Part shown: positions 1 through 38,097 of the stretch, one piece after another
Numbering within the stretch: the first letter of the stretch is position 1
Layout of the letters: every line of letters begins with the position of its first letter
From: Podarcis pityusensis
Lineage: Eukaryota
Length of the DNA stretch: 64,000 nucleotides
NCBI GenBank assembly: GCA_964106645.2
Contig: OZ067042.1
Reading direction: 5' to 3' (one strand)
Program-made: the position numbers and the translations under genes
Notes under the pieces: generated by a model
Databases searched by the model: none
What the model was told of the DNA's origin: nothing
What the model saw: the letters and a program-made list of their open reading frames with translations, nothing else

Positions 1-539
1 GGCATTGCAGCAGCAATTAAGGGGGTATCTGTAGGAGTTGTGGCATCCGCAGGGAGCAGTATGACTTTAGCCACTGGCGTGCCAGATGAAAAACCTAAGA
101 GGGGGGCTGCTTGTTTAATTGCAGTCCCCAGTGGCGTCGGCGGAGGCTGATAATCTGGTGGTCGTGGCGGAGTAAAAGGTGGTGGTAGAAGCGGTGCAGC
201 CGGATATATGAAAGGCATATTCACGACTGTTTTTTGTTGTGGTTGCAACGAAGCCAAGAGGATGTTTTTGGGCGTAAGAGTTGCCATGCAGCCACGGACT
301 TTAGCCCAGGCACTAAGGACGTGAACATTTATGCGGCTATGGCCATGAAAGTGGTCGCCAATTCTGTCCCAGTCCGGAATTTCCCATGTCCCATCCTCAG
401 GAAACCATGGACAATGTTCATCTATGGCCAGAATCAATGCAATTAGATCACCTTCAGGTACTTGCTGTTTATTTTCCCGAAGGAGGTGCTGCATGTCTTT
501 TAAAAATTGTTTCTGAGGGTTGGAGAGCGTAGAACCCAT
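1..539 (-). CDS. gag: Endogenous retrovirus Gag, N-terminal 179 aa (matrix plus proline-rich late-domain region), class II/betaretrovirus-like; ORF open to the window edge
   Basis: Manual translation from ATG at 539-537 with no stop to position 1: MGSTLSNPQKQFLKDMQHLLRENKQQVPEGDLIALILAIDEHCPWFPEDGTWEIPDWDRIGDHFHGHSRINVHVLSAWAKVRGCMATL...YPAAPLLPPPFTPPRPPDYQPPP.... MGxxxS myristoylation consensus; CPWFPxxGT...W..IG is the hallmark of betaretroviral (HERV-K/MMTV/MPMV-type) matrix; PPDY late motif. Lies downstream of a PBS and LTR. Confidence 0.92.
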   Translation of the reverse strand, partial: MGSTLSNPQKQFLKDMQHLLRENKQQVPEGDLIALILAIDEHCPWFPEDGTWEIPDWDRIGDHFHGHSRINVHVLSAWAKVRGCMATLTPKNILLASLQPQQKTVVNMPFIYPAAPLLPPPFTPPRPPDYQPPPTPLGTAIKQAAPLLGFSSGTPVAKVILLPADATTPTDTPLIAAAM

Positions 540-557
540 GATAAAAATAGAAAAATA

Positions 558-570
558 GCTACTCACCGGG
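558..570 (-). promoter_or_regulatory. ERV major 5' splice donor (CCG|GTGAGT) in the leader just upstream of gag
   Basis: Minus strand CCCG|GTGAGTAGC with GT at 566-565, about 25 nt before the gag ATG; this is the usual position of the retroviral major donor. Confidence 0.7.
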
Positions 571-665
571 GATCCGAAGATGAGAAGGCGCCTTGAGCCA
601 CAGCCGGGCGGGTGAGTAGCAGGGAGGACCGTCTTTGACAGCACGCGTCCTGGAAGCCGTTCAGG

Positions 666-683
666 CAATCACACGAGGCACCA
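666..683 (-). promoter_or_regulatory. Retroviral primer-binding site, TGGTGCCTCGTGTGATTG (best match elongator tRNA-Met)
   Basis: Starts TGG 2 nt after the LTR-terminal CA. The first 15 nt are complementary to the recalled 3' end of vertebrate elongator tRNA-Met (..UCACACGGGGCACCA) with one G:U pair. Confidence 0.75.
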
Positions 684-685
684 TT

Positions 686-1037
686 TGTCGGGGAACCAGC
701 CCACCAGGTGCGGAGGAAAATGACGAGGAGTCATGGGTGAAGGTTTAAGCAAGGAGTGAGCTCTCTCTCCCAGCAGCCTTGCATGTTTATTAGCCTTGCG
801 CACATTACATCATGTTGCATATACACGTGTAGCACTCGGGTGGAAAACAGCTAGGGTATGCATTTCTTAGAATAACTATTCTCTACCAGGACATAACTCC
901 AGACAGCATGACAGCCGCGTAAGCTTTGTGGTTAGGCAGCTTGTCAGTGACCCAGGCGTGTGGGGGGAACAAGTCAGCAGATGCTTCCTCTTGCACAATC
1001 TTGCACAAGGGTGCTATTTTTCTATTGCATCCCCACA
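686..1037 (-). mobile_element. 5' LTR of the class II ERV (352 bp)
   Basis: Minus strand begins TGTGGGGA (1037) and ends TCCCCGACA (686), i.e. TG...CA with imperfect terminal inverted repeats. It is followed after 2 nt (AA) by a TGG-initiated PBS. Contains a TATA-like TATATG (823-818), AATAAA (791-786), E-box CACGTG (824-829) and tandem TCTTGCACAA x2 (989-1008). Confidence 0.85.

Positions 1038-7779: not shown

Positions 7780-38097
<30,318 letters not shown>

Follow-up and report, generated by a model that had tools for sequence, protein, structure and literature searches.

The first bases of a 64,000-nucleotide stretch of the Podarcis pityusensis genome (contig OZ067042.1 of assembly GCA_964106645.2; G000:C5:41478001-41542000, hereafter the window) hold the 5' part of a provirus whose gag frame is still open where the window ends. 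The question raised by this locus is whether the provirus is young, intact and coding-competent, as the first-pass annotation supposed from the letters alone, and, if it is not, how it came to be where it is. We found a very recent, unfixed insertion of an internally deleted class II endogenous retrovirus (ERV). It was probably moved by the proteins of full-length relatives, with its fused reading frame a likely passenger.

On the minus strand, the 5' LTR, primer-binding site (PBS), donor-like site, gag ATG and the 179 stop-free codons that run from this ATG to the window edge all lay where the first-pass annotation had placed them. The reported excess of CpG was reproduced: observed/expected ratios were 0.90 for the leader and 0.60 for the coding sequence inside the window, compared with 0.18-0.40 in 16 host bins. 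The proposed class II matrix was recovered as a Pfam Gag_p10 match to residues 9-85 of the open frame (E 6.5e-16), and the best solved-structure matches of the in-window Gag were M-PMV matrix chains, that is, a betaretroviral matrix. The assignment of all 179 codons to gag held for residues 1-154; residues 155-179 (window 77-3) lie past deletion junction 1 and belong to pro. A second LTR, predicted to the left of the window, was found 3.3 kb away, followed by the predicted duplicate of ACCCTG. The element thus has the two TG...CA LTRs, PBS, polypurine tract and short target-site duplication of a class II provirus, together with a Gag_p10-type matrix, an RT thumb (PF06817) and an HHCC integrase; a class II RT that groups with beta-like sequences is present in unfused relatives, with YMDD at 23 sites, and the motif was lost at junction 2 here.

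Table 1. Provirus and host features; positions are those of the window unless a contig is named.
Feature	Position	Strand	Description
Provirus portion in window	1-1037	minus	5' 1,037 bp of the 3,654-bp internally deleted class II provirus
5' LTR	1037-686	minus	352 bp, TG...CA; 3 positions differ from 3' LTR
TATA-like TATAT	823-819	minus	within 5' LTR
AATAAA	791-786	minus	within 5' LTR
PBS	683-666	minus	14/18 bases complementary to the 3' terminus of tRNA-Met(CAT) from this genome
Splice-donor-like GTGAGT	566-561	minus	leader sequence, context CCG/GTGAGT
Gag_p10 matrix domain	539-270	minus	ATG at 539, starts Met-Gly
Proline-rich spacer	206-150	minus	late-domain-like YPx3L (206-189) and PPxY (161-150)
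Deletion junction 1	88-79	minus	10-bp direct repeat common to gag (immediately before capsid) and pro
pro-derived sequence	78-1	minus	tail of degenerate dUTPase-like region, then protease
Target-site duplication ACCCTG	1038-1043	plus	second copy at the element's far end
Host intron remainder, 3' end	1044-1093	plus	pyrimidine tract and AG
Host DNMBP exon after insertion	1094-1221	plus	
Whole element	G000:C5:41475384-41479037 (locus L031:5384-9037)	minus	3,654 bp
Element part left of window		minus	2,617 bp: protease piece remainder, junction 2, RT thumb/connection, RNase H, integrase, env-deletion junction, polypurine tract, 3' LTR

From the gag ATG a single 798-codon frame runs through matrix, proline-rich spacer, part of the protease, RT thumb, RNase H and integrase. 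Pfam matched it to Gag_p10, a partial RVP (profile 2-71 of 101), RVT_thumb, RNase_H, Integrase_Zn and rve, with no match to Gag_p24, a zinc knuckle or RVT_1; an unfused relative gave Gag_p24, Gag_p24_C and zf-CCHC_5. Measured against a natural full-length copy, junction 1 cost the element 1,304 bp (capsid, nucleocapsid and most of a dUTPase-like region), junction 2 cost 680 bp (the end of the protease and RT up to YMDD) and the env deletion 1,897 bp. The repeat at junction 1 is among the three longest direct repeats of gag and pro, and about 5 bases are shared at junction 2. Both junctions are in frame, with the gag frame joined to the pro frame at junction 1. Assembly collapse of about 3.9 kb was rejected as the cause of the short form, being very unlikely in view of 29 matching short elements. 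The capsid/zinc-knuckle gag and the env that had been expected to the left are both missing from this copy, and so 'intact' and 'coding-competent' had to be given up. A disrupted pol, named beforehand as refuting a young and intact provirus, was also found, in the loss of the RT catalytic core and a frameshift of the integrase near codon 797. Given the lost parts and established retroviral biology, this copy is unable to make particles or to reverse-transcribe alone.

The same form recurs across the genome. A search with the LTR gave 141 candidates, 40 of which were scored; pattern searches located the junction-1 fusion at 31 sites (up to 3 mismatches) and unfused relatives at 22 (exact match only), a two-part family of at least 53 sites. 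Junction 2 was present at 30 of the 31 junction-1 sites, and YMDD was kept at 23 sites. Among 63 loci examined, 52 were two-LTR elements and the other 11 single LTRs or partial copies; 48 of the 52 were flanked by 6-bp duplications, nearly all different. One junction-1 site, L078, was left out, as its 3' LTR fell outside the stretch analysed. Unfused elements came as full-length (about 7.5 kb) and env-less (5.6 kb) forms, and fused elements as forms of 5.4-5.5 kb with env (3/29) and of about 3.6 kb without it (26/29, one with a nested insertion). By length and motif criteria, gag, pro, pol and env were all open in 9 of 22 unfused copies, and Gly2 was kept in every fused (29/29) and unfused (22/22) copy. 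LTRs of about 352 bp were seen in 19/29 fused elements and LTRs of about 337 bp in 18/22 unfused elements.

The order of the deletions can be read from their distribution. Every junction-2 site also carries junction 1, and one copy (L079) carries junction 1 without junction 2, suggesting that junction 1 is the earlier. PPxY, YPx3L and PSAP are read as late-domain motifs. A PPxY spacer was present in all 30 junction-1 elements, compared with PSAP in 20 of 22 unfused elements and a PPxY-type spacer in one unfused copy (L058); this pattern points to a probable single founder for the fused lineage. The env-deletion junction was identical in 26/29 fused and 4/22 unfused elements. Four fused copies nested among unfused copies in the pol tree (support 99/95 and 100/99), a copy tree built without rows L044, L071, L077 and L061 in which 11 of 45 inner branches are well supported.

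We propose the following history for this family. Junction 1 would have arisen once, in a gag variant with PPxY and YPx3L motifs, and junction 2 would have followed; the env deletion may have been shuffled in and out by recombination, and all these deletions may have been RT template switches at short direct repeats. The 3.6-kb RNA would retain LTRs, PBS, leader and polypurine tract and would most likely be packaged by helper Gag, primed by tRNA-Met, and reverse-transcribed and integrated by helper enzymes. The env-deletion junction common to both classes and the four fused copies with unfused-clade pol argue for such co-packaging. Since the helpers keep Gly2 and env, spread by reinfection in particles that bear env is possible; movement within the cell would be the alternative route.

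Whether the fused frame is used was assessed from its breaks and its variants. Over codons 245-920 the frame was broken in 22/29 fused copies vs 4/21 unfused copies (Fisher p 0.00013), an excess due in part to the slightly greater age of the fused copies (mean LTR mismatches 1.1 vs 0.7); the whole frame was open in 7/29 fused copies. Breaks near codons 452, 797, 845 and 848 were common to 4, 9, 6 and 4 fused copies, respectively, and the integrase frameshift of the present copy occurred in 9/29 fused and 1/21 unfused copies. These shared frameshifts sit in short base runs and are scattered over a poorly resolved tree, and some may be recurrent slips or assembly errors, not inherited changes. 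Ten checked catalytic or zinc-binding codons were unchanged in all 29 fused copies. All four multi-copy breaks lay beyond codon 450 (p about 0.07), and codons 1-242 contained just 3 of the 23 distinct breaks (p 0.11).

Nonsynonymous:synonymous ratios, from small counts in which two of three copies with a common insertion site were dropped, were 32:20 for fused-only shared variants vs 89:47 for fused singletons (p 0.61), and 3:9 for unfused shared variants vs 48:25 for unfused singletons (p 0.011); shared-variant classes differed between fused and unfused copies (p 0.028). Within the fused-only shared variants, integrase alone gave 7:8, a hint of constraint there, and codons 1-242 gave 12:6, with no sign of it. 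The shared variants of fused copies look neutral on these comparisons. From breaks and variants together we conclude that the C-terminal half is probably not needed in cis; a role in cis for the N-terminal half is possible. Repeats of at least 10 bp between these genes were in codon phase in 19 of 35 cases. In-phase repeats being this common, selection was rejected as a needed cause of the two in-frame junctions.

These results bear on a reading in which the fused frame does help: its translation, through the N-terminal half with its myristoylated matrix, PPxY/YPx3L spacer, protease piece and RT thumb, or through a long open frame that stabilises the RNA, would put the deleted RNA at an advantage in helper particles. 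We hold this to be unlikely, with a chance still large enough to be taken seriously. Cis action has been reported for the mouse IAP 1-Delta-1 fusion protein in the available parts of two reports (PMC7411935, PMC6466679), and fused sites outnumber their unfused parent here (31 to 22); however, the usual routes of co-assembly and RNA binding are, on established retroviral biology, gone with capsid and nucleocapsid. Both junctions keep the frame, but so would many of the available repeats. All multi-copy breaks lie after codon 450, but the deficit of early breaks is not significant by either test given above, and codons 1-242 gave no hint of constraint. The PPxY spacer that sets junction-1 copies apart from PSAP-bearing unfused ones also exists in one unfused copy, and is therefore inheritable from the founder.

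The other readings fared worse than passage by helpers. Defective Gag proteins can restrict related viruses, and Gly2 and the matrix frame were open in all fused copies checked, so that the host might have kept a capsid-less fusion, perhaps to block the parent virus in a dominant-negative way; this is very improbable for a locus that is broken, is missing from an allele in each of three other DNA runs (below) and belongs to a class without purifying selection. Multiplication of the short copies as DNA, by segmental duplication or gene conversion in place of reverse transcription, has slightly less to recommend it: three copies on G000:C19 (L037, L038 and L045) do have one target site and flanks, but flanks and 6-bp duplications are separate in the other copies, and the clean empty site with one ACCCTG refutes it here, leaving it standing for the C19 triplet alone. 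The earlier picture of a young, intact and autonomous provirus drew on LTRs that barely differ, on CpGs still present and on a long stretch without stops, all of which are real; with capsid, nucleocapsid, the RT catalytic core and env all lost, the protease truncated and the integrase frameshifted, we give it practically no credence.

The insertion is young by two measures. The LTRs of this copy show 3 differences in 352 bases, in agreement with the youth claimed for it. Of the three differing states, two are each found in 20 of 102 other family LTRs and one is unique; because two recur, LTR distance overstates age, and a reading of all three differences as age was rejected. For 352 bases, a single difference at an assumed rate of 2e-9 changes per site per year implies an age of less than about a million years, with zero also compatible. 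LTR mismatches were zero in 13/29 fused and 13/22 unfused elements.

Empty-site contigs were recovered in 3 of 3 DNA runs examined (two organism labels), as the first-pass annotation had anticipated in calling the insertion possibly polymorphic. In these contigs, which show the presence of an allele and not the absence of another, the flanks were joined and 3,660 bases skipped, corresponding to the element plus one duplication, with a single ACCCTG at the pre-insertion site. In run X1, possibly not independent of the assembly, a contig breaks at the right junction; this fits a second, filled allele without proving it. The insertion is unfixed, or absent in the runs examined. Unfixed insertions are clean population markers.

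The affinities of the family were mixed. The label 'betaretrovirus-like' fits loosely, in view of a tRNA-Met primer, a gamma-type family env and an RT in a reptile clade of the quick tree described below. The PBS of one other family copy matches tRNA-Met(CAT) at 18/18 bases; a tRNA-Lys primer is typical of betaretroviruses. The family env matches TLV_coat (E 2.2e-11) and has CXXC, an immunosuppressive-domain-like stretch and CX6CC, as in a gamma-type envelope. The closest Pol proteins were from turtle, monitor and cobra (46-55% identical), compared with 40-41% identity to SRV-1 and SRV-4 and 40% to hamster IAP. In a quick RT tree (47 rows, SH-aLRT only, unreliable root, no row named as alpharetrovirus, lentivirus, MMTV or JSRV) the family RT fell in a 10-row clade (SH-aLRT 100) in which the five named rows come from turtles, monitor and cobra; SRV-1, SRV-4 and hamster IAP lay apart from it. 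Alpharetrovirus and lentivirus rows are missing because viral contigs, when searched with the RT region, yielded a single weak match (26%) and no reference retrovirus; P0052 was removed for having no YxDD match.

In their layout the unfused relatives resemble betaretroviruses. Read from the sequence only, gag, pro and pol lie in three overlapping frames, and the Gag of L033 has two zinc knuckles with a zf-CCHC_5 match, a region deleted in the present copy. Pfam gave no dUTPase match at the start of pro at E 1; the dUTPase-like region and protease aligned through the dUTPase part of P0071 (27% over 164 residues), and this region would be at most a degenerate remnant. Gag_p10, two zinc knuckles, three frames, YMDD and the 6-bp duplication are common to the family and to betaretroviruses including type D (M-PMV, SRV-1, SRV-4), and the type D viruses also have a gamma-type env. 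The differences are the low Pol identity to SRV-1 and SRV-4, tRNA-Lys in place of tRNA-Met, an RT outside the reptile clade of the quick tree and, on the lizard side, the degenerate dUTPase region. To judge by these features, the family is a reptile class II element with a beta-like layout, failing two usual betaretrovirus features, the tRNA-Lys primer and the beta-type env.

Named relatives were sought among reptile proteins and in the literature. The nearest to the family env and to pieces of the frame were from Podarcis and Zootoca. 'ERV group K-like' proteins of Podarcis lilfordi, P. raffonei, P. muralis, Zootoca vivipara, Varanus, Naja and turtles are gene models with borrowed names; three P. 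lilfordi fragments (P0169, P0198, P0243) were 96-100% identical to the fused frame. No unbroken matrix-to-integrase stretch was found among the 150 best database protein representatives, and a search for homologs of the first 300 residues of the fused frame gave 3 proteins (438-1397 residues), none with the same domain order. In gene models from Zootoca, Varanus and Emys (P0128, P0268 and P0006), capsid is joined directly to RT or integrase, and P0128 joins directly after the YMDD position, resembling junction 2; these joins may be genomic deletions or predicted introns. A Zootoca-type gag-pol join was not seen in this genome, where none of 150 scored matches (of 423 candidates) passed residue 51 of 87. 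The python element PyERV is likewise a reptile element that combines class II, beta-like gag-pol with a gamma-type env, a likeness drawn from its description, and the passages on PyERV in that source mention no fused non-autonomous form (PMC3758190). Retroviral envelopes are reported to be widespread in reptiles, in a source whose available part does not describe the lizard family (PMC13568524). Among titles and the starts of abstracts, we found no description of this family or its fusion; supplements of reptile ERV screens may list its loci.

The closest working model is mouse IAP 1-Delta-1, to which the lizard form is unrelated by descent: hamster IAP, at the Pol identity given above, falls in another RT clade of the quick tree, and the lizard helpers keep env. 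By anatomy, the lizard form likewise has a single gag-pol fusion frame at many sites, lacks its own capsid and RT and has helpers present. According to the available parts of two reports, IAP 1-Delta-1 is a non-autonomous class II element in which a 1.9-kb internal deletion produced one gag-pol fusion frame, without env, abundant beside full-length helpers and reported to act in cis (PMC7411935, PMC6466679). In contrast to that one deletion, as these sources give it, the lizard element has two serial ones (1,304 and 680 bp) involving three frames and removing all of capsid; in contrast to the reported cis action, 22/29 lizard copies are broken, with no selection seen. The lizard element keeps 2.7 kb of fused coding sequence, unlike mouse ETn, which is non-coding. 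ETn is described, in the part of the source available, as non-autonomous, present in more copies than its class II helper MusD and inserting more often (PMC6466679).

A bolder version of the cis reading would have this wall-lizard class II family, still inserting, independently evolve a more extreme form of the IAP 1-Delta-1 strategy, in which a translated, capsid-less and myristoylated matrix-protease-RT-thumb fusion, with late-domain motifs of its own, aids its RNA over the helper. We think this doubtful, at about the same level as cis help in general. If it is true, the in-frame gag-pol joins of the Zootoca, Varanus and Emys gene models are further independent cases. The family is in any event a useful result: a very young reptile class II retrovirus with a gamma-type env and open-frame full-length members, offering a stepwise deletion series and signs of helper-passenger recombination. 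It provides a non-mammalian case for the question, addressed mostly in mouse IAP, of why proviruses with in-frame deletions multiply more than their parents.

Several other copies were observed in the genome. Five solo LTRs (L046-L050), each flanked by 6-bp duplications, were 98% identical to the LTR of this copy. A single 3,789-bp family copy with identical LTRs (L061, G000:C5:11885600-11894600) carries a 3,744-bp deletion by which gag, with its matrix and part of its capsid, runs on in frame into env as one 982-codon frame. In the fused copy L032 (G000:C16:19921018-19930423), a 5.75-kb Gypsy-type LTR element with RT, integrase and chromodomain and with 685-bp repeats 99.6% alike is inserted directly after the PBS. 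The triplet L037, L038 and L045 (G000:C19:1.37, 2.22 and 3.90 Mb), with its common target site and flanks, appears to be a duplicated segment that already held the provirus. G000:C19 (38 Mb, 2.5% of the genome) holds 12 of 51 independent family sites (p 4e-9); our guess is that it is the W chromosome. Other class II families also fill the genome. One sister family is represented by ten equal-scoring sites (L098-L107) with Gag frames of 593-680 codons; its search gave at least 150 capsid-like matches genome-wide, in which G000:C19 was also rich.

The placement of the insertion in a DNMBP intron was upheld. Host exons in the window matched RhoGEF, BAR and SH3 domains, and the SH3 matched PDB 1ug1, 'KIAA1010 protein' (E 1.5e-28), which we take to be DNMBP. 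The element lies in antisense orientation to the host gene, with 56 bases between its end and the next exon, and contains three AATAAA sites on the host strand; RNA reads from a related organism are spliced across the insertion site, linking the exons that flank it. One raw RNA run of that related organism, which may not carry the element (about 12% of the run read, 40 reads aligned), showed host splicing, with hardly any reads on the element. As one unfixed, defective, antisense intronic insertion, the locus alone is minor; at 56 bases from a DNMBP splice acceptor, its effect on splicing is testable in carriers. At window 9393-16144 the minus strand carries exons of an ABCC-type transporter, arranged tail to tail with the host gene; this is presumably the DNMBP-ABCC2 neighbourhood.
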